A stretch of DNA of 64,000 bases from Pyrinomonadaceae bacterium (GCA_035606795.1 DATNEI010000107.1:470-64469), one strand, 5' to 3'; shown: positions 6,127-31,878, numbered from the stretch's first letter. Numbers and translations: made by a program. The notes: generated by a model not told the origin, from the sequence alone.

Positions 6127-6567
6127 TTGTTTAGATTTTTATGATTGCCGCTGCGTGTTTAATCCCAAAATCACCACGCGCGGGCATTATAACCTAAGCA
6201 ACAAGCCCCTAGAAGTATCATATTTCCTGACCGGTTCATCACTTAAACTGTGGTTGCGACCGGAATTCGTCGTCGAAAGAATTCTGATGCGTCTCCGAAA
6301 CAAATGGGATCACCTACTCGCGGGCGTTCTTGGAACACACTCAAACTTCTCAACTGACGCATGACTCGTCGCTTAATCTGACCCTGTCATTCGTTCAACC
6401 TGACCGGACGCAGGCACGGGCAAGTGTTGTTTCATGTCGTGCTTAATCCGCAATAGCTCAACAACTTACATGAATCCCTACGCGATGGCACGCGCATAGC
6501 TAAAGAAACGTCGCCCGTGGAGTATCTCCTGGAGCTGGTCGACCCGATCCGACCAAACATTACAAGG

Positions 6568-9246
6568 ATGATAAAAATGAAAAGAACCCCCGCTGCCCCC
6601 GCCATCACCTGGCTGACTCTGGCCGCGCTGCTCATTACGACAGCGGCCACTTTTAGATTCAGCCCCGCGGCCCGCGCGCAAGTCTCGGAATCGATTGCGA
6701 CGGAAAACAGTCGCGCGATTCTTTCTAAATACGCGATTGACCTGACACAGCTTGCCGCACAAGGAAAACTCGAGTCGTTGCAGGGCTTCGATGCCGAAAT
6801 CAATCGTGTCATGGCTGCTTTGGCGCATTCATCGACCAAAGCTCCCGTCATTATCAGCGAGTCGGACGTAAATCGCGCCGCGGTAGCACGCGCGATCGCG
6901 ATGCGAATTGTTTCAGGTGACGCACCCGAAGCATTGCGCGGAAAACGCGTGTTGAGCTTGAACCTCGATGCGCTCGCCAAAGACGCGAAGACGAGCCAGG
7001 AATTCGAACGCCGCCTTCAGACGGTATTCAAGGCTGCCGCACAGACGAACGGTGAAGTTATCCTGTTTGTCGATCAACTTCATCAATATGCCGGCACGCG
7101 GGCCACCGCGACGGCCAGTGCAACTATCAAATCAGCGATTGTCGCGAACAGTATCCCGGTGATCGCAGGCGCCAGTCCGGAAGCTTTCAATTCCTACATC
7201 GTCACTGACGAGTCAGTCGCCAAACTGTTTGAATCAATTTCGCTCGACGGCGCCGCGGCCACTGCGACCAATTCAGATTCTCGTGACAAACGAAAGAGTC
7301 CAATTGATGAAGAGTTCGTCGGTGAGAAGATCGCGCCTGAGATGCGCGAATTGATTCGCAGCGCCGGACCGAACGGCCGCGTTTCGGCAATTCTTCAAGT
7401 TAGTGACGTAAACAATCGCGAAGTTCGCCGTTTGCTCGCGCGCAGCGGCATCACTCTCGGCGAGTCGATGGTGGCTCTTGGCGCCATGAAAGTAGATTTG
7501 CCCGTCAATGCGATTGAAGGGTTGATGAAGAACGACTCAATGAACTTCATCTCGCCCGACGTGACGTTAGAATCCTTCGGCCACATCACCGCGACTACCG
7601 GCACTGATCAAATACGCAATTCGCCGGGACTCCTTGCCGGCTTGCTGGGCGCCTCAGCGGTTGATGGCACTGGCGTGGGTATTGCGGTACTTGATTCAGG
7701 TCTCGATACCAGCCACGGTGCATTCACCACGGGAACCGCGCGCATCAAGTTCAGCAAGGACTTCACTGGAGAAAACATTACCTCGGCGGATCCGTATGGG
7801 CACGGAACGCACGTAGCGGGCTCAGCCGCCGGCGCCAGCTATTCAGACGGAACCAGATACCAGGGCATCGCTCCCGGGGCAACTATCATTAACCTGCGCG
7901 TACTCAACTCGAAAGGTACCGGTACAACTTCGGGTTTGCTGAACGCGCTGAACTGGATTCTCAGCCCGGCTGATCCGACAAAAGCAATCAGCTCAACCAA
8001 TCCGCGCAACAAGGACAAGTACAACATTCGCGTCGTCAATATGAGTTTGGGCGCGCCGGCAATTAGCTCCTACAAGAACGATCCGATTTGTCGCGCCGCT
8101 CGTGCCTTGGTCGACGCGGGAGTTGTAGTGGTCGCGGCTGCCGGTAACAACGGCAAGGACGCGAACGGCCGAAAGATCTACGGAGCCATTCACGCTCCCG
8201 GCAATGAACCTTCCGTAATTACGGTGGGCGCCGCAAACTCCTTCGGCACCGATGCTCGCAGCGACGATAGCGTAGCGACTTATAGCTCGCGCGGGCCAAC
8301 CCGCAGCAAGTGGACAGATGCGGGCGGAGTTGTCCATTACGACAACTTGCTCAAGCCCGATTTAGTCGCCCCAGGAAACAAGCTGATCTTTGCAGAATCA
8401 GACGCCGGGAGTAGTGGACTACTTGGAACTGGCTTGTTGGGTAGCGCTGTAACTTTGAATTATCTCGTCGACACTTATCCGTATCTGGATTCGGGTATTA
8501 GCGATAATGATAATCGCCGGCTGATGTATCTGAGTGGCAGCTCGATGGCTACGCCTGTTGTGACTGGCATCGCGGCACTGATGCTGCAGGTTAACCCCAA
8601 ACTCACACCAAACCTGGTCAAGCTAATCCTCATGTACACCGCCCAACCGCTAGCGGGCTGGAACATGCTCGAACAGGGTACCGGAGAAGTGAATGCTGAA
8701 GGTGCGTTACGCTTGGCGAAAATCGTGCGGACAAATCTGAGCGCGGCGACCCCGCAAGGCGATCCGTTGCTGACTACGACCACGGCACCGGATCCCCATA
8801 CGACTATTGCGGGTCAGAAGTTTACGTGGTCCCAGGGAGTAATGTTCAAACACTGGTATGCGAAAGGCACGAATCTGATTACGAAATATCATACGTACGA
8901 CGCGCTGGGTGTAGTACTCGGCGATGGCGTCGTGCTCGGCGATGGCGTCGTGCTCGGTGATGGCGTGGTGCTCGGTGATGGAGTGGTGCTGGGTGACGGT
9001 GTAGTTCTCGGCGACAGCATATTCACGAGCGCCGGCGTCGTTCTCGGCGATGGTTCTGTCTTTTGCAGCGGCGTCGTGTTAGGTGACGGCGTCGTATTGG
9101 GCGATGGCGTTGTCTTGGGCGATGGTGTCGTACTGGGTGACGGCGTCGTGCTGGGTGATGGCGTCGTGCTGGGTGATGGCAATCTCCAGGCAATGTCTCT
9201 GCGCGCAATGATCTACGGCGACAGCGGGCCGTATATGCATCCGTAA
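6568..9246 (+). CDS. Secreted S8 subtilisin-like serine protease with an N-terminal degenerate ClpB/C-type AAA+ module and C-terminal GVVLGD hexapeptide repeats (paralogue 1)
   Basis: The track ORF starts at GTG 6517. ATG 6568 or 6577 follows an aagga RBS and precedes the signal peptide MKMKRTPAAPAITWLTLAALLITTAATFRFSPAARAQ. The S8 triad is intact (VLDSGLD, HGTHVAG, SGSSMATP). The AAA+-like region is DLTQLAAQGKLE...ILFVDQLH. Confidence 0.85.
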   Translation: MIKMKRTPAAPAITWLTLAALLITTAATFRFSPAARAQVSESIATENSRAILSKYAIDLTQLAAQGKLESLQGFDAEINRVMAALAHSSTKAPVIISESDVNRAAVARAIAMRIVSGDAPEALRGKRVLSLNLDALAKDAKTSQEFERRLQTVFKAAAQTNGEVILFVDQLHQYAGTRATATASATIKSAIVANSIPVIAGASPEAFNSYIVTDESVAKLFESISLDGAAATATNSDSRDKRKSPIDEEFVGEKIAPEMRELIRSAGPNGRVSAILQVSDVNNREVRRLLARSGITLGESMVALGAMKVDLPVNAIEGLMKNDSMNFISPDVTLESFGHITATTGTDQIRNSPGLLAGLLGASAVDGTGVGIAVLDSGLDTSHGAFTTGTARIKFSKDFTGENITSADPYGHGTHVAGSAAGASYSDGTRYQGIAPGATIINLRVLNSKGTGTTSGLLNALNWILSPADPTKAISSTNPRNKDKYNIRVVNMSLGAPAISSYKNDPICRAARALVDAGVVVVAAAGNNGKDANGRKIYGAIHAPGNEPSVITVGAANSFGTDARSDDSVATYSSRGPTRSKWTDAGGVVHYDNLLKPDLVAPGNKLIFAESDAGSSGLLGTGLLGSAVTLNYLVDTYPYLDSGISDNDNRRLMYLSGSSMATPVVTGIAALMLQVNPKLTPNLVKLILMYTAQPLAGWNMLEQGTGEVNAEGALRLAKIVRTNLSAATPQGDPLLTTTTAPDPHTTIAGQKFTWSQGVMFKHWYAKGTNLITKYHTYDALGVVLGDGVVLGDGVVLGDGVVLGDGVVLGDGVVLGDSIFTSAGVVLGDGSVFCSGVVLGDGVVLGDGVVLGDGVVLGDGVVLGDGVVLGDGNLQAMSLRAMIYGDSGPYMHP
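8908..9180 (+). repeat. Coding 18-nt (hexapeptide GVVLGD) tandem repeats in two blocks
   Basis: (GVVLGD)x6, then SIFTSAGVVLGDGSVFCS, then (GVVLGD)x6-7. Units differ at synonymous positions. Confidence 0.9.
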
Positions 9247-9373: not shown

Positions 9374-9637
9374 TCTCTGAAAAACTTCCACTCTCCGGCT
9401 CTCCCGTCCTTATCTAAAGCGCGCTAACAGAATCGTGAGTCATCTTCTTAATCTGACCTTTCCATCGTTCAACCTGACCGGACGAACCACAAGCAAGGGC
9501 CTATTTATCGAGCGTAATCCGCTATATTTCAATGACTTATGCGAATCCAAAGGGATGGCACGCGCATAGCTAAAGAAGCAGCGCCCGTGGGATTTTTCCC
9601 GGAGCTGGTCGACCCGATCCGACCAAACATTACAAGG

Positions 9638-12277
9638 ATGATGAAGATGAAAAGAACCCCTGCTGCCCCCGCCATCACCTGGCTGACTCTGGCCGCGCTG
9701 CTCATTACGACAGCGGCCACTTTTAGATTCAGCCCCGCGGCCCGCGCGCAAGTCTCGGAATCGATCGCGACGGAAAACAGTCGCGCGATTCTTTCTAAAT
9801 ACGCGATTGACCTGACACAGCTTGCCGCACAAGGAAAACTCGAATCCTTGCAGGGCTTCGATGCCGAGATTAATCGCGCCATCGCTGCTCTGGCGCGCTC
9901 ATCCACCAAAGCGCCGGTTGTGATCAGCGAGTCGGATGTGAATCGCCTCGGCTTAGCGCGTGCGATCGCACTGCGCATCGTTTCGGGTGACGCGCCGGAC
10001 GCATTACGCGGAAAGCGCGTGTTGAGCCTGAACCTCGATGCTCTTGCGAAAGACGCGAAGACAAGCCAGGAATTCGAACGGCGCGTCCAGGCCGTATTTG
10101 ATGCGGCCGCAGATGCCCAGGGAGAAATCATTCTTTTTGTCGACCAGCTTCATCAGTATGCGGGCACGCGTGCCACGGCCAGGGCTAGCGCAACGATCAA
10201 ATCAGCTATTGCCGCGAAGGGCATTTCGGTGATCGCAGGCGCCAGTCCCGAGGCTTTCAACTCGTACATCGCCACCGATGAGTCGGTCGCAAACCTGTTT
10301 GAATCAATTTCGCTTGATGGTGCGCTTTCAACCACAGCGACGTCTGAAATTGCCAAGGACAAACGCAAGAGTCCAATTAACGAAGAGTTCGCCGGTGAAA
10401 AGATTGCGCCTGAAATGCGCGAGTTGATTCGCAGCGCCGGACCCAACGGCCGCGTCTCGGCAATTCTTCAAGTGAGTGATGTAAACAGTCGCGAAGTTCG
10501 CGCGTGGCTGGCACGTAATGGCGTTTTAGTAGGTGACAGCATGGCGAACTTGGGAACGATGAAGGTGGATTTGCCCGCTCGCGCGGTCGAAGCCCTGATG
10601 CAGAACAGATCGATGAACTTCATTTCGGCGGATGTAAAGATCGAGTCCTTCGGTCACGTCACCGCCACTAGCGGCGCCGATCAAATTCGCAACGCGCCGG
10701 CGCTACTAGGCGGCTTGTTAAGCGGGACAGCCATTGATGGGACCGGCATCACGATCGCAATCATTGATTCGGGCATGGACCTCAGCCACGTTGCGTTTCA
10801 GCCTGGCGGCCGCGTGAAATTCAAAAAGGATTTCACTCCTGAAAATAAGCCTGATAAGGATTTCTACGGCCATGGCAGTCACGTCGCAGCATTGGCAGCA
10901 GGAAATTATACGAATGGAACAGGCACTAGCTATCAGGGCATTGCCTACAATGCCAGCTTCGTGAACCTGCGGGTGCTCGACTCCAATGGCGTGGGCTCGA
11001 CCTCAACGCTACTCGCAGCACTGAATTGGTTCCTGACGCCGGCCGACCCCAGCAAACCACTCAGTAGCTCAAACCCATTAAACAAGGACAAGTACGCGAT
11101 TCGCGTTGTAAACATGAGCCTGGGCACCCCCGCTGTGAGCTCATACCAGAACGATCCCATTTGCCGCGCCAGTCGCGCTCTCGTTGATGCGGGCCTGGTC
11201 GTAGTCGCCGCCGCCGGCAACAGCGGCAAAGATGCGAACGGAAACAAAATCTATGGTCAGATTCACTCGCCCGGCAACGAGCCATCGGTGATTACTGTCG
11301 GCGCCGCCAACACGTTCGGCACTGATTCACGTGCTGACGATGTCGTAGCGACCTATAGCTCGCGTGGTCCAACTCGCAGCTATTGGACGGACGCCAATGG
11401 CGTCAAGCATTTCGACAACATTCTGAAACCGGAACTGGTCGCTCCTGGCAACAAGCTCATCAATGCCGAAGCTGACGATGGGGGCTCCAATCCCAATAAC
11501 CTGGTGAAGCAGAACCCATCACTCGATGCGGGTATCAGCACTTCGGACAACAAAAGGATGATGTACTTGAGCGGCACTTCAATGGCCACACCGGTGGTCG
11601 CGGGAGCAGCGGCCCTGATGCTGCAAATCAATCCGAAGCTGACACCGAACATGGTGAAGATGGCTTTGATGTACACGTCAGATCCGCTTGCCGGAGCGAA
11701 CATGCTGGAACAGGGCACAGGCGAAGTTAACGTTGAAGGCGCCTGCCGTCTGGCGAAAGCAATACGCACCGACCTGACGTCAAGTACAGCCCAGGACAGT
11801 CCAATGCTGACGACTTCTGCTCCGAATCCGCAAACGACGATCGCGGGATACACGTTCACGTGGGCGCAAGGGATCCTATTCAAGCGCTGGTACGCGAAAG
11901 GCACCCCCCTAATCACGAACTATCAAACCTATTACGCTCAGGGCGTGGTGCTGGGTGATGGCATTGTGCTTGGTGACGGTGTCGTACTTGGTGATGGCGT
12001 CGTGCTCGGGGACGGTGTGGTGCTCGGCGACGGAGTTGTGCTGGGCGACAACATTTACACGAGTGACGGCGTCGTCCTCGGTGACGGCACTCTGTTTTGC
12101 AGCGGTGTCGTGTTGGGCGATGGCATTCTGCTTGGTGACGGGGTCGTACTGGGCGACGGCATTCTGCTCGGAGATGGCGTAGTGCTAGGCGACGGCGTGG
12201 TGCTGGGTGATTCAGCAGTTCAGGCCATGTCGGTCCGCGCAATGATCTTCGGCGACCTGGGCCCTTCAATGCACTAA
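9638..12277 (+). CDS. Secreted S8 subtilisin-like serine protease with degenerate AAA+ module and hexapeptide repeats (paralogue 2)
   Basis: The track ORF starts at 9539; ATGs at 9638, 9641 and 9647 precede the same signal peptide. The triad is IIDSGMD, HGSHVAA, SGTSMATP. Domain order matches paralogue 1. Confidence 0.85.
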   Translation: MMKMKRTPAAPAITWLTLAALLITTAATFRFSPAARAQVSESIATENSRAILSKYAIDLTQLAAQGKLESLQGFDAEINRAIAALARSSTKAPVVISESDVNRLGLARAIALRIVSGDAPDALRGKRVLSLNLDALAKDAKTSQEFERRVQAVFDAAADAQGEIILFVDQLHQYAGTRATARASATIKSAIAAKGISVIAGASPEAFNSYIATDESVANLFESISLDGALSTTATSEIAKDKRKSPINEEFAGEKIAPEMRELIRSAGPNGRVSAILQVSDVNSREVRAWLARNGVLVGDSMANLGTMKVDLPARAVEALMQNRSMNFISADVKIESFGHVTATSGADQIRNAPALLGGLLSGTAIDGTGITIAIIDSGMDLSHVAFQPGGRVKFKKDFTPENKPDKDFYGHGSHVAALAAGNYTNGTGTSYQGIAYNASFVNLRVLDSNGVGSTSTLLAALNWFLTPADPSKPLSSSNPLNKDKYAIRVVNMSLGTPAVSSYQNDPICRASRALVDAGLVVVAAAGNSGKDANGNKIYGQIHSPGNEPSVITVGAANTFGTDSRADDVVATYSSRGPTRSYWTDANGVKHFDNILKPELVAPGNKLINAEADDGGSNPNNLVKQNPSLDAGISTSDNKRMMYLSGTSMATPVVAGAAALMLQINPKLTPNMVKMALMYTSDPLAGANMLEQGTGEVNVEGACRLAKAIRTDLTSSTAQDSPMLTTSAPNPQTTIAGYTFTWAQGILFKRWYAKGTPLITNYQTYYAQGVVLGDGIVLGDGVVLGDGVVLGDGVVLGDGVVLGDNIYTSDGVVLGDGTLFCSGVVLGDGILLGDGVVLGDGILLGDGVVLGDGVVLGDSAVQAMSVRAMIFGDLGPSMH
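11941..12211 (+). repeat. Coding hexapeptide (G[VI][VL]LGD) tandem repeats in two blocks
   Basis: GVVLGDGIVLGDGVVLGD..., then NIYTSDGVVLGDGTLFCS, then GVVLGDGILLGDGVVLGD... Confidence 0.9.
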
Positions 12278-24025: not shown

Positions 24026-24541
24026 ATGATCCGTCCTTTTCGCGGTGTTCATCCGCAAATTCACGAAACCGCATTCATCGCCGACAGCGCGCAGATCATC
24101 GGCGACGTGCACATCGGCGAGCAGGCTTCCGTCTGGTTTGGCTCAGTCGTACGCGGCGACATGTTCTACATACGCATCGGCGACCGCACGAATGTTCAGG
24201 ACAACTGCGTGCTGCACACGCGCACTGGCGAGAAACCGACCATCCTCGAAGAAGAAGTCACCATCGGCCACAGCGTAACGCTGCACGGTTGTTACATTGA
24301 ACGAAAGAGCCTAATCGGAATCGGATCGATTGTTTTAGACGATGTGCGGGTGGGACATGAATCGTTGGTGGCGGCCGGTTCGTTGATTTCTCCCGGCACG
24401 ATCATTCCGCCACGTTCATTGGTGATGGGCATGCCGGCACGAGTGAAACGGCCGTTGTCTGACGAAGAAGTCGCCAGCCTCGATCGCTTTTGGCAGAATT
24501 ACGTTGAGTATTCGGCCGTTTATCTGCGCGATGAAGCGTAA
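24026..24541 (+). CDS. Gamma-carbonic-anhydrase-like left-handed beta-helix protein
   Basis: MIRPFRGVHPQIHETAFIADSAQIIGDVHIGEQASVWFGSVVRGD is canonical for this family. Confidence 0.8.
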   Translation: MIRPFRGVHPQIHETAFIADSAQIIGDVHIGEQASVWFGSVVRGDMFYIRIGDRTNVQDNCVLHTRTGEKPTILEEEVTIGHSVTLHGCYIERKSLIGIGSIVLDDVRVGHESLVAAGSLISPGTIIPPRSLVMGMPARVKRPLSDEEVASLDRFWQNYVEYSAVYLRDEA

Positions 24542-24546
24542 GGTGA

Positions 24547-25548
24547 TTAGGCGAAGGAAAGCAGTTCTTGCTGTGGTTGAGAGCTTGAATGCGCTGTCAT
24601 CCATCCGATCACATCGCCCATTCCAGCAAGATCCGCAGAGGAAAGAGGGTGGGCGCCCTTAGTAATCAATTCTTGATTACCTCGACCAATCTCAGCGCTC
24701 GCACGAACGAACAAAGGACACCAGCCCGCCGTCAAGGCCTCGACAGCGCCCGCCCACGTGCCCCCTTTCTCATATTCGCTCGACACTACGACTGAATAAT
24801 CAGAAGCGCCGTAAATTATCTTGTTGCGGCCCATCGCCCCACCAATTGAAAACCCGTTGTCAGGTCGATAAGGTGTTACTAAAACCAGTCGCCCGTCAGC
24901 GATGAAGCCACGCACTTCGTTCTGTCGGATGGTCTTAGTGAGACTGTCCGCCAGCACTCCAATCGCGCAGCCACCTGCGTCCAGCCCACCTTGCATCGCG
25001 ATGCGATCCGTCCCGCGCGCTCCTCCGGACACTACCGCCACTGAGGAGCGGGCACATATTTCTCCCAGGCGGCGCGCAAAGGTTGCCCCCTCGTCATCAA
25101 TGTTGCGCGAGCCGACAATCGCAATTGCCGGGCGACTGAGAATTGACAATTCGCCGGAGCCGAACAAAACCGGCGGCGCTTGATGTTTCATCGAATCCTT
25201 CAGTCGTACAGGATATGAATCATCAAGACGGGTCATGCACCAAATGCCACTCGCAGACATTTGTTCTAGTTCCAGCGCAACGGCACCCCCGCGATCGAGC
25301 AGCGCGGCAATGCGTTCAGCTTCCGCCTCAGCGATTGCGAGATGTTTCGACAGATCTGCGGTAGACATTCCCAGCAGCGCACCCGGACGGGCTAACTCCG
25401 ACTCATGAATTCTCCGCGCGAGCGCGTTCCACTCTTTAAGCGTCAGCGGCGATACCGTTGATTCAATGCCGTCGCTCAAGCCCAACCGCGAACACAGCAT
25501 GACAACGGCTGCGGAATCGTCGGTTAGTTGTGCGCGCGTATCGATCAT
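24547..25548 (-). CDS. DprA/Smf-like (SLOG Rossmann) protein, second copy; RqlI/PsyrA-like putative antitoxin
   Basis: AIAIVGSRNIDDEG...VVSGGARGTDRIAMQGGL...GVLADSL matches the DprA core. Its ATG overlaps the stop of the upstream helicase gene (ATGA at 25545..25548). Confidence 0.7.
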   Translation of the reverse strand: MIDTRAQLTDDSAAVVMLCSRLGLSDGIESTVSPLTLKEWNALARRIHESELARPGALLGMSTADLSKHLAIAEAEAERIAALLDRGGAVALELEQMSASGIWCMTRLDDSYPVRLKDSMKHQAPPVLFGSGELSILSRPAIAIVGSRNIDDEGATFARRLGEICARSSVAVVSGGARGTDRIAMQGGLDAGGCAIGVLADSLTKTIRQNEVRGFIADGRLVLVTPYRPDNGFSIGGAMGRNKIIYGASDYSVVVSSEYEKGGTWAGAVEALTAGWCPLFVRASAEIGRGNQELITKGAHPLSSADLAGMGDVIGWMTAHSSSQPQQELLSFA

Positions 25549-27656
25549 GAATCACCCGCGGTGGCCCTGGCTAAAACGAAAGGAAAGACCGGACCGCTGC
25601 CGTTTATCCGCAGTAACGCTGCGATCATGGTCAATGTCCAACCTGAATCAACCACATCGTCAACCAACAGAACCGGCGCTTGGAGGATATCACGCTCGAC
25701 CGAGAACGCTCCTAACAAATTGCGCAATTGTTGGGCACTGTTCTCCATAAGTTTTTGCGGTTCCGTTTCGCGGGTTTTCGCGATGACAGGTGCGAAAGAG
25801 AGATTCAAGATTCTCGCCAAGCGTTTGCCAAAGTCTGATACCAATGTCGGTTCACGATTCGAAGGAACACAAGTAATCCATTCCGGAAATGGATCGGGCC
25901 GCCAGCGCTCGCGTATCAACCGCGCGGATACTTCCACCAGTTCATCGCTGAAATGTTTTGCCTGGTACTTGCCGTCCGCCACCACTCGTCCCCAGCCCGC
26001 GTCCCCGTAAATGGACAGTGAGCGTCCGGGTTGGGGGCGCAAATCTTCTGGAATTCTTGTGCTTACTCTTCCCTGCTTCGTGAGGCCGACGGCATCCGGC
26101 ATAACTTCTTGAATGTCATCGAGCGCCGCGACGGGCCATTGTTTCCGCGCGTCAAAAATAACGTCATCACCGCGCAAAAACTCAATCGCTTCGTGAATCA
26201 GCTTCTGCGGGATTGTTTGCCGGTGAGTACGGCCAGAGCAATTCATGCATTTTCCGCATGGCGAAGGCGCCGGATCGTCCAACGCTAGCGCCAGAAATTC
26301 CATCAGGCAGCCAGTGTGATCGACGTAGCCTTTTATCTCCTCCAGTTCGGCACGACGGTTTTTGGTCACCTGCTCCGAATGCAATAAATCCAGATGCCAC
26401 GCATTGGGAGTGCGGATGAACGTCCTGCCATCTCGAATAACAGCACCATCCACTTCCAGTAGCTTCAGAGTTTTATCGATCACTCCACGTCGATAATTCA
26501 TTTGCGACATCAGTTCATTGACGGTGACGCCAGACCTCTGCTCAACCGCCTGTAATACTTGCGACATCACCTTAGCGGGCGGAAACGCTGAACGAATAAA
26601 GTAGTCCTGAATTTCGTCGTCTTCGCGGCCGCTCAACAGAATGCCGTACGCCTCGTCGACCGCACGGCCGGCCCGTCCGACTTGTTGGTAATAAGCGATG
26701 ACTGAGCCGGGTCGCTGAAAGTGGATGACAAAACCCAGATCGGGTTTATCGAAACCCATTCCGAGTGCTACCGTCGCCACCAGCGCTTTGCATTCGTTGC
26801 TGATTAACCTCCGTTCAGTCTCCAAACGCTCTTCATTGGCCAAATCCCCATAGTATTCAAGTGCGTCGATTCCGTTCTGCCGAAGCCACCCCGCAACTCG
26901 ACGCGTGTCTGGAATTGTTAAGCAATAGATAATGCCGCTACCGGGAAGCTTCGGGACGAACTCAGCCAGCCACGCGAGGCGCTCGCTCTGATCACTCAGT
27001 TTGATGTTGAAGAGTTTCAGCGACCCGCGCGTTAGTGGGCCGCGCTGTACCTGAAGGTTTGGAATCTGAGCGACGACATCCTGCACCACACGATTGTTTG
27101 CAGTGGCCGTGGTGCACACGACCGGAACTTTCGCCGGCAGCATTTGCAGGATGCGGACGATGCGACGATAGTCCGGGCGAAAGTCATGGCCCCAATCAGA
27201 GATACAATGCGCCTCATCAACAATGAAGAGGCCGACGCTGTTTTGGATTCGCGAGAGCACGCTGCTGCGGAACTCAGGATTCGCCAGTCGTTCCGGAGAA
27301 ATAAGAAGAATGTCGCATTCGTTTCGTGCGAGCGCCGTCTGTGCGTCGGCCCATTGTTCGAGGTTTTCGCTGTGGATGGTAAATGGCCGCAAGCCGATGT
27401 GGCGTGCTGCATCGATTTGATTTCGCATCAGCGCCAGCAGGGGGCTGATCAATAACGCAGGTCCTGAGCCGCCATCGCGAAGAATTTTCGTCGCTAAAAA
27501 GTAAACGATGCTCTTGCCCCAACCGGTGCGCTGGACTACGAGCACACGTTGCTTGAGATTTGCGGCAGCATGAATCGCATCCCATTGGCCTTCACGAAAA
27601 GATTTGTCGGCGCCGAGCATCTGGCGTAGGAGCGACTCAGCTTCGGGTTTGTTCAT
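25545..27656 (-). CDS. RecQ-like SF2 helicase fused to a C-terminal ComF-type phosphoribosyltransferase domain; RqlH/PsyrT-like
   Basis: Walker A QRTGWGKS, DEAH box FIVDEAHCISDWGHDFRPDY, RecQ Zn motif CGKCMNCSG, and a C-terminal PRPP loop VLLVDDVVDSGWTLTM. Confidence 0.75.
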   Translation of the reverse strand: MNKPEAESLLRQMLGADKSFREGQWDAIHAAANLKQRVLVVQRTGWGKSIVYFLATKILRDGGSGPALLISPLLALMRNQIDAARHIGLRPFTIHSENLEQWADAQTALARNECDILLISPERLANPEFRSSVLSRIQNSVGLFIVDEAHCISDWGHDFRPDYRRIVRILQMLPAKVPVVCTTATANNRVVQDVVAQIPNLQVQRGPLTRGSLKLFNIKLSDQSERLAWLAEFVPKLPGSGIIYCLTIPDTRRVAGWLRQNGIDALEYYGDLANEERLETERRLISNECKALVATVALGMGFDKPDLGFVIHFQRPGSVIAYYQQVGRAGRAVDEAYGILLSGREDDEIQDYFIRSAFPPAKVMSQVLQAVEQRSGVTVNELMSQMNYRRGVIDKTLKLLEVDGAVIRDGRTFIRTPNAWHLDLLHSEQVTKNRRAELEEIKGYVDHTGCLMEFLALALDDPAPSPCGKCMNCSGRTHRQTIPQKLIHEAIEFLRGDDVIFDARKQWPVAALDDIQEVMPDAVGLTKQGRVSTRIPEDLRPQPGRSLSIYGDAGWGRVVADGKYQAKHFSDELVEVSARLIRERWRPDPFPEWITCVPSNREPTLVSDFGKRLARILNLSFAPVIAKTRETEPQKLMENSAQQLRNLLGAFSVERDILQAPVLLVDDVVDSGWTLTMIAALLRINGSGPVFPFVLARATAGDS

Positions 27657-27685
27657 GAGGATTTTCGCCGTGGGAGGGCTGATGG

Positions 27686-30187
27686 TTAGGTCCGCTTCTC
27701 TTGCGCCACCTCTTCTGTCGGGCCTCGCGGCATCAACTCGCTCTTATATCCACAGCCTTCTGCGTCTGAGCAGTACTTGGTGACACCCTTCTTCGTAGTC
27801 TTCTCGAGTAAGAATGGCTTGCCGCATTGCGGACACTTCTCTTCAATCGGTTTGTCCCAGAAGACGGACTCGCACTTGGGATAATTAGCGCAGCCGTAGA
27901 AAACTTTTCCGCGCCGGGACTTTTTCACCACCAGTTCACCGCCGCAGCCGGGCCGCGGACACTTAACGCCCGTAGTTTCCTGCTTGATGTACTTGCATTT
28001 CGGATAGTTCGAACAGGAAATGAATTCGCCGAAGCGTCCTTGCCTGCGCACCAGTTGCGCGCCGTCCACGGGACAGTTCTCATCGATGGGCACCGGCGGC
28101 GCGGACATTTTTCCGCTCTTGGAAATCTTGCGAATGTTCCGGCATTCGGGATAGCCCGAGCAACCGTAAAACGGTCCGAACCGTCCGCGTTTCAGTTGCA
28201 TCTGCTTCCCGCAAAGTTCGCACGCTTCGATCTCTTCTTCGCCGTCTCCCCCCGCCGCGGTGGCTTCCGGAGCTCGCACTGGTTCTGCATCACGCGTCGC
28301 GCCACAGTTGTTGCACTTGAGATACTTTCCAAACCGTCCCAGCTTCTGCACCATGCCGGGCGTGTTGCACTTCAGGCAGACTTCGTCAGTGGGCGTCTCT
28401 TTCTCTTTGATGTCCTTCGCGTATTTCTCGAACTGAGCAAGATCTTTCTTGAAAGTTTTGTAGAACTCGCCAATCGCATCAGTCCACTTGAGCTTCCCCT
28501 CTTCGATCTCGTCGAGTTCTTCCTCCATGCGCGCGGTGTAGGTCTCGTTGAAGAGATCGTCAAACCCGCCCTCGATCAAAACATCGTTCACCGTTTTGCC
28601 GAGCGCCGTCGGATGGAAACGCCCTTCTTTCTTCTCGACGTACTCGCGATCCTGGATCACTGTCATGATCGCGGCATAGGTCGAGGGGCGGCCGATGCCC
28701 TTTTCTTCGAGCGCCTTCACCAGGGTCGCCTCGGTGTACCGGGGCGGCGGCTCAGTGAAATGCTGCTCGGGATCGATCTTGTTGAGTGTTAACGTTTCGC
28801 CTTTCTGCACTAAAGGCAGAGTGCGCTCATCTTCCTCGTCGTCAGCCTTTTCGTCGCGACCCTCCTGGTAGACTTTCAGGAAGCCGTCGAACTTCAAGAC
28901 TGATCCGGTGGCGCGGAACACAAATCGTCCGGCATTAATATCGATTGTGGTTTGATCGAAAAGCGCCGGCATCATTTGCGACGCGACAAAGCGCTGCCAA
29001 ATCAACCGGTATAGTTTCAGTTCTTCCGGCTTCAGATATTTCGCCAGCGAATCCGGGGTGCGCGTCACATCGGTAGGTCGAATCGCTTCGTGGGCGTCCT
29101 GCGCGTCTTTCTTCGAGCGATAGTGCACTGCTTTTTCCGGGAGATATTTTTCCCCGTACTGTCCCTGGATGAATCCGCGAACTTCGCCCAGCGCCGTCTC
29201 GCTCACGCGCGTCGAGTCGGTACGCATGTAAGTAATCAGCCCCACCGAGCCTTCTTCGCCAATCTCCACGCCTTCGTAGAGGTGCTGCGCGATCATCATG
29301 GTGCGCTTCACCGGGAAGCTGAGTTTGCGTGAAGCTTCCTGTTGCAACTTTGAGGTGATGAACGGCGGAACCGGATTGCGCTTGCGTTCTTTGGTGGTGA
29401 CCTCGTTGACAACGAAAGTCTGTTGTTGCGCTTCGGCGACTATCTCGTTCGCCTGCTGGTCGGTGCCGATCAGAATCTCCGACTTCTTCAAATCCTGATC
29501 GAAACCACTGGTCTTGACAGTCTTGTCATCGACTTTCAGCAAGCGCGAGTCGAACGCTGGTGGTTGATTGCCACTGAGGTTGGCGCCAATGGTCCAATAC
29601 TCGGTCTTGACGAAAGCTTCGATTTCGCGTTCGCGCTGGACCACCATGCGCAAAGCCACGGACTGGACGCGGCCCGCACTCAGACGTCCTCCAATCGTGC
29701 GACAGAGCAGCGGCGAAACTTTGTAGCCCACGAGGCGATCGAGTATCCGTCGCGCCTGCTGTGCATCAACCAGGTTTCCGTCGATCTGCTTCGGATGGTC
29801 GAACGCTGCCTGGACCGCGCGCTTGGTAATCTCATTGAACATCACGCGAAAGGCGGGCTTGGCAGGTTTCTTCGGAACGATCTCTTCCGCGAGGTGCTGG
29901 CAGATCGCCTCACCTTCGCGATCGGGGTCAGCGGCCAGATAGATCGCATCGACCTCTTTCGCAGTCTTCTTTAGATCTGCAACGATCTTTTTGTTATTAC
30001 GCTTTTTTGAATCAGGAATGATCTCGTATTCCGGCGCGAAGTTGTTTTGAACGTCGACACCGAGGCCCTTCGAAGGCAGATCTTTGATATGCCCGATCGA
30101 GGCCTTCACCACGAAGTCCTTACCGAGATACTTATTGATCGTCTTCGCCTTGGCGGGCGATTCGACAATTACGAGATTCTTAGCCAT
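27686..30187 (-). CDS. topA: DNA topoisomerase I
   Basis: Toprim start MAKNLVIVESPAKAKTINKYLG (ATG at 30187; the track extends to 30376). Active-site region ITYMRTDSTRVS. Four C-terminal CxxC...CxxC zinc ribbons. Confidence 0.95.
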   Translation of the reverse strand: MAKNLVIVESPAKAKTINKYLGKDFVVKASIGHIKDLPSKGLGVDVQNNFAPEYEIIPDSKKRNNKKIVADLKKTAKEVDAIYLAADPDREGEAICQHLAEEIVPKKPAKPAFRVMFNEITKRAVQAAFDHPKQIDGNLVDAQQARRILDRLVGYKVSPLLCRTIGGRLSAGRVQSVALRMVVQREREIEAFVKTEYWTIGANLSGNQPPAFDSRLLKVDDKTVKTSGFDQDLKKSEILIGTDQQANEIVAEAQQQTFVVNEVTTKERKRNPVPPFITSKLQQEASRKLSFPVKRTMMIAQHLYEGVEIGEEGSVGLITYMRTDSTRVSETALGEVRGFIQGQYGEKYLPEKAVHYRSKKDAQDAHEAIRPTDVTRTPDSLAKYLKPEELKLYRLIWQRFVASQMMPALFDQTTIDINAGRFVFRATGSVLKFDGFLKVYQEGRDEKADDEEDERTLPLVQKGETLTLNKIDPEQHFTEPPPRYTEATLVKALEEKGIGRPSTYAAIMTVIQDREYVEKKEGRFHPTALGKTVNDVLIEGGFDDLFNETYTARMEEELDEIEEGKLKWTDAIGEFYKTFKKDLAQFEKYAKDIKEKETPTDEVCLKCNTPGMVQKLGRFGKYLKCNNCGATRDAEPVRAPEATAAGGDGEEEIEACELCGKQMQLKRGRFGPFYGCSGYPECRNIRKISKSGKMSAPPVPIDENCPVDGAQLVRRQGRFGEFISCSNYPKCKYIKQETTGVKCPRPGCGGELVVKKSRRGKVFYGCANYPKCESVFWDKPIEEKCPQCGKPFLLEKTTKKGVTKYCSDAEGCGYKSELMPRGPTEEVAQEKRT

Positions 30188-30354: not shown

Positions 30355-31497
30355 TTACAACCGCCGCACGAAGCACTTGCCCGGAAGCGCCCGAATCAGC
30401 TCACGCATTTCCAGCGTGAGCAACGCGGTGGTCAGTTGCGTGATCGATAGCTTGGTTGTTTCGGCCAGTGCGTCGATCTGTTGGGGCGTATCGGTCATCA
30501 ACAGTTTGAAAATCGCGCGTTCGTGCTCACTTAAATCAGTTGGAGTCAGGGCGAGTTGATCAACCAGCTCGCCTCTTTTCTTTTTCTTGCTGGGCGGCGG
30601 CAGCAGTTGGGCAGCAATCTCAGCCGGCAATTCACTCGCAATGTCCTGCCATTGCTGGACGAGCTTGGCTCCCGCGCCTTTGATCAAATAGTTCGTGCCG
30701 AACGAATTGCGCGAAGTGATGTTCCCCGGGATAGCGAAGACTTCCCTGTTCTGTTCCATCGCCAGCCGCGCCGTAATCAAAGAGCCGGAATTCTCTGCCG
30801 CTTCCACCACCACTACTCCTAAACTCAATCCACTGATCACGCGATTGCGATAAGGAAAGTTTTCGGACACTGGTGGTGTGCCGAGCGGAAATTGCGTCAC
30901 CAGCGCGCCGCCTTTGTTCAGAATTTCAAGTGCCAGCTTGCTGTGGTCGCGCGGATAGAATTGATCCAGGCCCGTTCCCATCACTGCCACGGTTTTGCCG
31001 CCGCCTTCCAACGCTCCGCGGTGCGCCGCCGCATCAATGCCGCGCGCCAGGCCGGAAATGATTGTCACCCCGCGTTGTGCCAGTTCACGCGCCAACATCA
31101 GTGCGGCGTTCTGACCGTAAGTTGAGCAGCGACGGGAACCAACAATCGCCACACAGGGCCGCTCGAGACATTCCGACCACGCGCCCTTCACGTATAGCGT
31201 TACCGGCGGATCGTAAGTCTCGCGCAACAGCGTCGGGTAGACGCCATCATCCAGGACGAGAATGTCGCCTCCGAGTTTGCGGACTCTTTCGATTTCCGCT
31301 GCGGCGCGTTCGTGAAGTTCGCGATTGGCGATGCACTCGATTGTCTCCGGCGTCAAACGCAACAACGCCAGTTCACGACGAGGAGCATCGAAGACCGCTT
31401 CCGCTGAACCGAAGTGTTCCAGCAGACGCGCAGTCACACGTGGACCAACACCGGGAGTCATATTGAGCGCAATCCAGTCTTTCATTAACTTGAGCAA
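30355..31497 (-). CDS. dprA: DNA-processing protein DprA (housekeeping copy, upstream of topA)
   Basis: CVAIVGSRRCSTYG...IISGLARGIDAAAHRGAL plus a C-terminal winged-helix domain. dprA-topA is a conserved gene pair. Confidence 0.85.
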   Translation of the reverse strand: MLKLMKDWIALNMTPGVGPRVTARLLEHFGSAEAVFDAPRRELALLRLTPETIECIANRELHERAAAEIERVRKLGGDILVLDDGVYPTLLRETYDPPVTLYVKGAWSECLERPCVAIVGSRRCSTYGQNAALMLARELAQRGVTIISGLARGIDAAAHRGALEGGGKTVAVMGTGLDQFYPRDHSKLALEILNKGGALVTQFPLGTPPVSENFPYRNRVISGLSLGVVVVEAAENSGSLITARLAMEQNREVFAIPGNITSRNSFGTNYLIKGAGAKLVQQWQDIASELPAEIAAQLLPPPSKKKKRGELVDQLALTPTDLSEHERAIFKLLMTDTPQQIDALAETTKLSITQLTTALLTLEMRELIRALPGKCFVRRL

Positions 31498-31592: not shown

Positions 31593-31709
31593 GTGTCAGA
31601 ACCGCGAGCGGTAGCGACCGGATCATTTGGCTCCTGAGCCAAGGAACGTTCCCTTGTTTTCACCAAACGCGCCTGCTGATCCGGTCGCTACCGCTCGCGG
31701 TTCTGACAC
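31593..31709. repeat. Perfect 33-bp inverted repeat (GTGTCAGAACCGCGAGCGGTAGCGACCGGATCA) with a 51-nt spacer
   Basis: Arms 31593..31625 and 31677..31709. The spacer itself holds two small palindromes (ttggctc/gagccaa and aaggaacgttccctt). It lies 70 nt upstream of tRNA-Sec. Confidence 0.9.
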
Positions 31710-31779: not shown

Positions 31780-31878
31780 GGAGGCGCATCTGTTCTGGTG
31801 AATGGCGCGGTCTTCAAAACCGTTAGTGAGACTGCGAGAGCAGGCTCAGGTAGGTTCGATTCCTACACGCCTCCGCCA
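31780..31878 (+). tRNA. selC: tRNA-Sec (anticodon UCA)
   Basis: Folded by hand. Acceptor GGAGGCG/CGCCTCC with a C.A eighth position. 6-bp D stem CTGTTC/GAATGG with 4-nt loop TGGT. Anticodon loop CTTCAAA is identical to that of E. coli selC. The long variable arm carries a GAGA tetraloop. T arm is GTAGG-TTCGATT-CCTAC, followed by discriminator G and CCA. Confidence 0.9.

Follow-up and report, generated by a model that had tools for sequence, protein, structure and literature searches.

A PsyrTA (RqlHI)-type gene pair variably present downstream of topA in Pyrinomonadaceae

The window considered here, a 64,000-nucleotide (nt) stretch of DNA from a Pyrinomonadaceae bacterium of the soil Acidobacteriota (GCA_035606795.1 DATNEI010000107.1:470-64469), carries at 24547-27656 two overlapping minus-strand genes, one for a RecQ-like helicase fused to a ComF-type phosphoribosyltransferase (PRTase) and one for a DprA-like protein. 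The pair is almost certainly an intact member of the PsyrTA (= RqlHI) family: an already known kind of two-gene module, made up of ordinary accessory genes, and not a new type of system. The genes and the parts of the larger product are listed below, with amino acid (aa) positions numbered in each protein; SF2 stands for superfamily 2 and PRPP for phosphoribosyl pyrophosphate.

25545..27656, minus strand: psyrT (rqlH), 703-aa RecQ-like helicase with ComF-type PRTase, the toxin component of such pairs (PADLOC, Pfam, model)
24547..25548, minus strand: psyrA (rqlI), 333-aa DprA-like protein in a short form, the antitoxin component of such pairs (PADLOC, Pfam)
25545..25548, minus strand: ATGA overlap of psyrT stop and psyrA start, translational coupling (read directly from the sequence)
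26619..27656, minus strand: SF2 ATPase/helicase core of PsyrT, about aa 1-346, with Walker A K48 and D147-E148-A149-H150 (invariant in 42 homologues)
26217..26618, minus strand: RqlH-specific linker, a winged-helix-like region at about aa 347-445 and then a tetracysteine zinc module, C450/C467/C470/C473 (cysteines invariant)
25548..26216, minus strand: C-terminal ComF-like PRTase domain, aa 481-703 (predicted fold, Pfam)
25635-25673, minus strand: PRPP loop, V662-T674 (D666, D667, D670, S671 and T674 invariant)

A preliminary description of the locus, made from the sequence by itself, had reported reading frames of 703 and 333 aa joined by a stop/start overlap, and both open reading frames (ORFs) and the ATGA overlap are indeed present. 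At the junction, GGT GAT TCA TGA ends psyrT and, in the other frame, ATG ATC GAT ACG begins psyrA, with the 4-nt ATGA shared; the same -4 overlap is found in close relatives (loci L081-L090 and L138). psyrT is upstream of psyrA, adjacent to it and on the same strand, which is the PsyrTA gene order. The helicase motifs quoted earlier (QRTGWGKS, DEAH and CGKCMNCSG) can all be found in the psyrT translation, as can VLLVDDVVDSGWTL, and the quoted DprA-like motif GGARGTDRIAMQGGL is in that of psyrA.

Both proteins match the PADLOC models for the family. PsyrT is covered almost from end to end (PDLC03928; E 2e-279, 926.7 bits; residues 3-702 on model positions 5-688 of 689), and PsyrA is covered at residues 8-329 (PDLC03927; E 2.4e-104; model positions 3-323 of 398), with the last ~75 model positions absent; the ShosA match is far weaker (1e-26). 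Together with the full RqlH architecture and the conservation of functional residues described below, these profile matches bear out the RqlHI/PsyrTA-type assignment first made from motifs and the literature. That PsyrTA and RqlHI are the same, and that a DprA-like antitoxin is combined with a PRTase-containing toxin in both PsyrTA and ShosTA, agrees with the published accounts (10.1101/2022.05.11.491447; PMC4670107).

In PsyrT, Pfam recognizes DEAD and Helicase_C domains, a sub-threshold RecQ_Zn_bind (residues 427-473; 23.1 bits, cut-off 25), and a Pribosyltran domain barely over threshold (PF00156; 26.9 bits, cut-off 26.3), with no match for an HRDC domain. The NCBIfam recQ_fam model TIGR00614 is exceeded (238.3, cut-off 219.8). 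The ATPase ends near residue 346, and about 100 aa separate it from the zinc module, a spacing described as a trait of RqlH (PMC3378886). In an alignment of 42 homologues, 62-91% identical, K48, D147-E148-A149-H150 and the four cysteines C450, C467, C470 and C473 are invariant in all 42, as are the PRPP-loop residues D666, D667, D670, S671 and T674. K48 and the DEAH box at 147-150 are the equivalents of RqlH K49 and D148, mutation of which kills the ATPase activity of the Mycobacterium smegmatis and E. coli proteins (PMC3378886, PMC4670107), and the position equivalent to E. coli RqlH D663, whose change to alanine abolishes toxicity (PMC4670107), falls within the PRPP loop.

The full-length AlphaFold model of PsyrT (mean predicted local distance difference test score, pLDDT, 81.8) matches RecQ catalytic cores. 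Modeled separately, residues 481-703 (pLDDT 91.6) have Helicobacter pylori ComF (7p0h) as their top match in the Protein Data Bank (PDB), followed by PurF, OPRT, APRT, and ShosT (8zvd). NCBIfam matches to this domain are to GntX (3e-8) and ComF (2e-5). Pfam, NCBIfam and the best fold match thus all agree with the PRTase identity proposed at the outset. No solved structure of the PsyrT/PsyrA family itself was found in the PDB, only RecQ cores, DprA, and ShosA/ShosT.

At E <= 1e-10, the C-terminal domain type of PsyrT (window 25545-26216) is matched by 771 cluster representatives (50% identity). Of those listed, many are only 200-330 aa long, whether as fragments or as stand-alone proteins; a few, at 913-2597 aa, are very long, and other fusion partners are possible.

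PsyrA consists of an N-terminal helical region (aa 1-96) and a DprA Rossmann/SLOG domain (aa 97-302), the latter type of domain being recognized by Pfam as DNA_processg_A (8e-37). It is not a canonical DprA: its score against the NCBIfam dprA equivalog TIGR00732 is 88.7 (cut-off 191.15), there is no Pfam match for DprA_WH, and identity to the window's own DprA is 31% over only 141 aa. A separate gene at 30355-31497 has both the score and the domain. At 333 aa, PsyrA is shorter than the RqlI of E. coli F11 (400 aa) or an E. coli plasmid copy (462 aa), and it does not have the C-terminal extension of the E. coli-type long form. Among the 62 loci counted in a length survey (L081-L168), the distribution has two modes: 20 are short (~310-350 aa), and 34 are long (>=380 aa) with an extra C-terminal region. 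In all close relatives PsyrA is 331-333 aa. The tail of E. coli RqlI was regarded by its authors as a putative helix-turn-helix (HTH) domain; it is dispensable for neutralization, since RqlI 1-320 without it is fully active (PMC4670107).

With the PsyrTA/RqlHI system (E. coli F11; PADLOC, DefenseFinder) the pair shares its two-gene architecture, gene order and translational coupling, and the window PsyrT retains the K/DEAH and PRPP-loop residues that have been tested in E. coli RqlH. A copy on an E. coli IncF plasmid has a PsyrT 48% identical over its full length and a PsyrA 41% identical over aa 8-298. The window pair differs from E. coli RqlHI in its host phylum, in an antitoxin that is missing the C-terminal ~80 aa, in having no separate promoter region, and in its position outside a defense island. 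The RqlH of M. smegmatis (691 aa, against 703 for PsyrT) has the same sequence of parts, namely ATPase, RqlH-specific linker, tetracysteine zinc module and ComF-like C-terminal domain, again with no HRDC (PMC3378886); its gene stands without an RqlI partner (PMC4670107), whereas psyrT has a coupled one.

Like the pair, ShosTA has a DprA-like antitoxin, and its toxin, a PRTase that binds PRPP, causes DNA damage (PMC11961720, PMC12961424). The structural and sequence matches are weaker: the template modeling (TM) score of the PsyrT C-terminal domain model against ShosT 8zvd is 0.51, and PsyrA matches ShosA weakly both by models (1e-26) and by structure (9vzo, 3e-8). ShosT has a pyrophosphatase domain where PsyrT has its helicase, and ShosA neutralizes indirectly, via RecA, whereas RqlI binds RqlH directly. 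A ShosTA assignment was rejected: the toxin here is a helicase-PRTase, no ShosT model was among the 25 PADLOC matches listed, and PsyrA matches its own model far better than it does that of ShosA. The natural transformation proteins DprA/Smf and ComF have folds in common with the PsyrA Rossmann/SLOG domain and the PsyrT C-terminal domain, respectively, but PsyrA has no winged-helix C-terminal domain as canonical DprA does, and the ComF-like domain of PsyrT, unlike ComF, is fused to a helicase. Two helicase identities were also set aside: classical RecQ (TIGR01389 270.1, cut-off 640.2; no HRDC match), and the DpdF helicase of Dpd systems (NF041063 134.5 against 550), for which PADLOC matches cover the helicase part only and no dpd genes are nearby.

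The pair lies at the 3' end of a dprA-topA unit, with the following neighbors.

27657..27685, minus strand: topA-psyrT spacer, 29 nt (without promoter-like or terminator-like match on the minus strand)
27686..30187, minus strand: topA, type IA DNA topoisomerase I (Pfam Toprim, Topoisom_bac, and three Zn_ribbon_Top1 stretches)
30355..31497, minus strand: canonical dprA (NCBIfam TIGR00732, 245.6 against a cut-off of 191; Pfam DprA_WH, DprA_N)
24026..24541, plus strand: convergent hexapeptide-repeat gene, second edge of the insertion site (Pfam Hexapep)
31780..31874, plus strand: tRNA-Sec gene, anticodon TCA, just upstream of the dprA-topA unit (Rfam)

The start of topA was set at MAKNLVIVESPAKAK, the point where alignment to relatives begins. 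Its stop codon ends at 27686 and the ATG of psyrT is at 27656, so that the position beside topA stands as described earlier and the gap, given then as 30 bp, is 29 nt on count; the spacers in the relatives L003 and L053 are ~40 and ~35 nt. On the other side, the psyrA stop is 5 nt from that of the convergent hexapeptide gene. The other neighbor of topA is, as had been said, the canonical dprA, which has an N-terminal HHH domain as well as DprA_WH and scores above the NCBIfam dprA cut-off; the two DprA paralogues do lie within 7 kb, the two genes together spanning 6.95 kb. dprA is upstream of topA in most of 80 relatives, and the simplest explanation for finding two DprA paralogues close together is that the dprA-topA pair is conserved. 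No evidence of a functional link between them was found.

Presence or absence of the pair at this site was surveyed with TopA as query and one genome per species, so that carriers and non-carriers could both be recovered; the window proteins were then located in 80 loci by tblastn. The topA/convergent hexapeptide-gene arrangement is kept in 13 relatives' loci, or 14 species including the window. Three of these (the window, L003 and L053) have the pair; the site is empty in 11 of the 13 relatives (L001, L002, L006-L012, L033 and L052), among them the two closest. In the empty sites topA is followed directly by the hexapeptide gene, with an intergenic stretch of only 93-315 bp by coordinate difference, and no fragments of PsyrT or PsyrA were detected by tblastn in any of the eleven. 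In more distant Pyrinomonadaceae loci, the pair was not found in the DNA available downstream of topA. With 11 of 14 syntenic species lacking it at this position, the pair is accessory rather than housekeeping; variable presence among relatives had been put forward as a check on the preliminary description, and universal conservation is not what was found.

The closest homologues come from sources such as Pyrinomonadaceae and Blastocatellia. In a neighbor-joining species tree of DprA+TopA, built without bootstrap support, four carriers (the window, L053, L003, and the metagenome locus L085) fall in one seven-species clade, interleaved with three non-carriers; an eight-species sister clade and the outgroups do not have the pair at the site. 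Among carriers, identities are 77-83% for PsyrT and 67-80% for PsyrA, compared with 88-90% for TopA. Ratios of nonsynonymous to synonymous divergence (dN/dS) among the four are ~0.03-0.09 for psyrT, ~0.10-0.12 for psyrA, and ~0.04-0.06 for topA and dprA, all of them rough values since dS is saturated (above 1). Both psyrT and psyrA are under purifying selection and selectively maintained, and at the protein level they have evolved two to three times faster than their neighbors topA and dprA. The most economical history is probably that the pair was gained once, where the dprA-topA unit has its 3' end, and was later lost cleanly on three or more occasions in the lineage; repeated gains by recombination through the flanks may be an alternative. 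The site offers a natural presence/absence series at a single chromosomal position, usable for following how such modules are gained and lost, and what they cost, in soil bacteria that are uncultured.

The pair is probably transcribed by read-through from topA, because the 29-nt gap leaves no room for a promoter, no consensus match was found, and the antitoxin is without the putative HTH tail. Promoter and terminator searches of the minus strand between topA and psyrT and after psyrA gave no match, with a sigma-70-type consensus that may not fit Acidobacteriota. No direct or inverted repeats flanking 24547-27656, no integrase or transposase near the pair in the window, and no composition shift were found, and an Rfam scan for other RNA features returned only the tRNA-Sec.

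Elsewhere, homologues 47-77% identical to the window proteins occur in unrelated settings. Among 80 metagenome loci with a PsyrT 47-82% identical to that of the window, a psyrA gene is directly downstream in 67; in 8 the contig ends too soon, and in 5 there is no psyrA in at least 2 kb of downstream DNA, these last matching the solitary RqlH genes noted previously (PMC4670107). Full-length homologues are on twelve plasmid records, haloarchaeal ones included. On the E. coli conjugative IncF plasmid mentioned above (L169; NZ_OX030731.1, 37352-40869), psyrT-psyrA is inserted into a type I restriction-modification (R-M) operon, with hsdS on one side and hsdR on the other. In phage records no full-length homologue was found, matches being limited to the helicase part. 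The 126 flanking genes of the ~80 loci include no family more than four times, and only one TopA; the commonest families (HIT and HtrA-like protease) stem from one related lineage. In L086, L087 and L090 (74-76% identity), the cassette is bordered by a gene for an HtrA-like protease and by a HIT gene. A homologue at 63% identity (L088) is beside a DUF433/PIN pair, and a verrucomicrobial copy (L083) is among housekeeping genes. In L085, topA is kept upstream, and the downstream genes are a Y1 transposase, which follows psyrA at this locus only, and alaS, not the hexapeptide gene. A minority of the flanking genes belong to defense systems: BrxC, PglX, BrxHI, type I and IIG R-M components, and IetS. 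One more distant locus (L162:393-4508) has psyrT ~35 nt after a genuine topA, with TopA 47% and PsyrT 51% identical to those of the window; its contig ends before any psyrA position. This is one case among 37 diverse loci having 2.5 kb or more of upstream DNA, above naive chance as a frequency, but a single post hoc case.

Toxicity of the helicase-PRTase alone, with binding and neutralization by its partner, has been shown only for E. coli F11 RqlHI, and a search of the available literature found no paper devoted to the PsyrTA mechanism other than the 2015 RqlHI study. On its own, F11 RqlH leads to an SOS response, filamentation and loss of viability; its toxicity needs the PRTase domain, being abolished by removal of residues 509-690 or by D663A, while helicase-dead mutants are still harmful; RqlI is co-transcribed with RqlH, binds it, and neutralizes it (PMC4670107). 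M. smegmatis RqlH has DNA-dependent ATPase and 3'-5' helicase activities, and was examined as a repair candidate (PMC3378886). PsyrTA figures in a list of phage-protective systems, and transformation with a psyrA deletion did not succeed (10.1101/2022.05.11.491447). In ShosTA, PRPP must be bound for toxicity, the DprA-like antitoxin has both single-stranded DNA (ssDNA) and RecA as binding partners, and phage ssDNA and host expression shut-off are the proposed triggers (PMC11961720, PMC12961424).

By analogy with these systems, PsyrT would be a 3'-5' RecQ-like DNA helicase whose PRPP-binding ComF-type PRTase domain would be genotoxic when unrestrained, with SOS response and filamentation as the outcome. 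Restraint would be exerted both by the helicase's own ATPase activity and by direct binding of co-translated PsyrA. The most plausible insults to upset this balance and free the PRTase would be intermediates of phage DNA replication or a halt in host gene expression, and the infected cell would then arrest or die. The odds that the pair works as an anti-phage/abortive-infection module in its Pyrinomonadaceae host appear about even. The broader interpretation, a maintained PsyrTA module with a toxin-antitoxin or defense mechanism like that of its homologues, gained once at topA and then lost in several relatives, is given a probability of roughly 0.7.

Several observations weigh against this broader interpretation. 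The locus is outside any defense island, in line with the preliminary description: PADLOC searches of the 35 other large ORFs of the window gave only generic subtilase, PDC-M37B and DolB matches. Most sampled homologues likewise have housekeeping neighbors. Read-through from topA is deduced only from spacing and a missing consensus, and there may be a promoter inside the topA 3' end; the dN/dS values are rough, as stated. Finally, with a native E. coli PsyrTA, no protection from the phages used could be detected, whether in its own host or on expression in K-12 (10.1101/2024.12.20.629700).

This last result also suits a selfish, addiction-type toxin-antitoxin cassette, kept by post-segregational killing or plain vertical descent with no anti-phage benefit to the host. 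Toxin-antitoxin-like genetics in E. coli (PMC4670107), the patchy distribution and the occurrence on plasmids would all fit, but the three or more clean losses within one clade argue against effective addiction at this chromosomal site, and a homologue is listed as phage-protective. Moreover, purifying selection acts on both genes, and the 2.1-kb helicase gene keeps every catalytic residue, which suggests that an activity going further than mutual neutralization is selected. A purely selfish cassette is therefore considered unlikely.

Slightly less likely again is an accessory DNA-repair or recombination module, in which the pair would act with TopA (compare RecQ-Topo III) and canonical DprA from one operon to process host recombination or replication intermediates. 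Probable co-transcription with dprA-topA, across a 29-nt gap with no terminator match, would be expected of such a module, as would the lack of a surrounding defense island; the topA-psyrT adjacency recurs in L162, M. smegmatis RqlH is a true 3'-5' helicase (PMC3378886), and ShosA works through RecA and DNA repair (PMC12961424). Against this, 11 of the 14 syntenic species, the two closest included, have no pair at this position, and topA is not a recurrent neighbor, with its single occurrence among the 126 flanking genes. Other copies are in R-M and BREX loci and on plasmids, and the E. coli homologue is a toxin-antitoxin pair whose toxicity comes from the PRTase domain, not from helicase activity (PMC4670107).

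A more specific proposal, and an improbable one, is that placement after topA is functional rather than accidental, with PsyrT expressed from topA and acting with the type IA topoisomerase. The recurrence of the adjacency in L162 bears on this, as does the local PsyrA, which is without the putative HTH tail that could autoregulate the pair. If it were so, the arrangement could represent a RecQ/Topo III-like pairing, or supercoiling-responsive topA transcription could set toxin and antitoxin levels, tying the state of DNA topology to an abortive response.

The idea that an old insertion survives here only as a remnant, decaying or inactive, is largely refuted and very hard to credit: the missing promoter region, an antitoxin of 333 aa against 400-462 aa in E. 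coli and the repeated losses in relatives might suggest it, but the reading frames are intact, the catalytic motifs invariant and dN/dS far below 1, and the short antitoxin is found in 20 of 62 loci and all close relatives, with E. coli RqlI 1-320 fully active (PMC4670107).

For the preferred reading of a maintained PsyrTA module, the consequences are modest. The known PsyrTA/RqlHI family is extended to Acidobacteriota, with small practical value. Any tractable homologue would be of some value, and the only special handle of the window copy is its unusual (inferred) dependence on topA for expression.

Two features of the surrounding DNA remain to be described. Between the dprA start and the tRNA-Sec gene (window 31593-31709) is a palindrome whose 33-nt arms match perfectly around a 51-nt loop. 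Its core, GGTAGCGACCGG, also occurs at the empty topA/hexapeptide site of L052 and L033, with variants in L001 and L002, and it looks like a dispersed element of this lineage, similar to repetitive extragenic palindromic (REP) sequences. A GC-rich palindrome fills the position after topA in several of the empty-site relatives and is absent at the three filled sites. The transposase directly after psyrA in L085 (L085:9186-9767) is of the IS200/Y1 type, and may relate to the REP-like palindromes.

Farther away, at 6517-9246 and 9539-12277 on the plus strand, are tandem paralogues of ~910 aa, each with a subtilase (Peptidase_S8) domain and, at the C terminus, a domain of hexapeptide repeats (left-handed beta-helix). 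The combination is unusual, and is the probable source of the weak PADLOC “subtilase” matches in the window.

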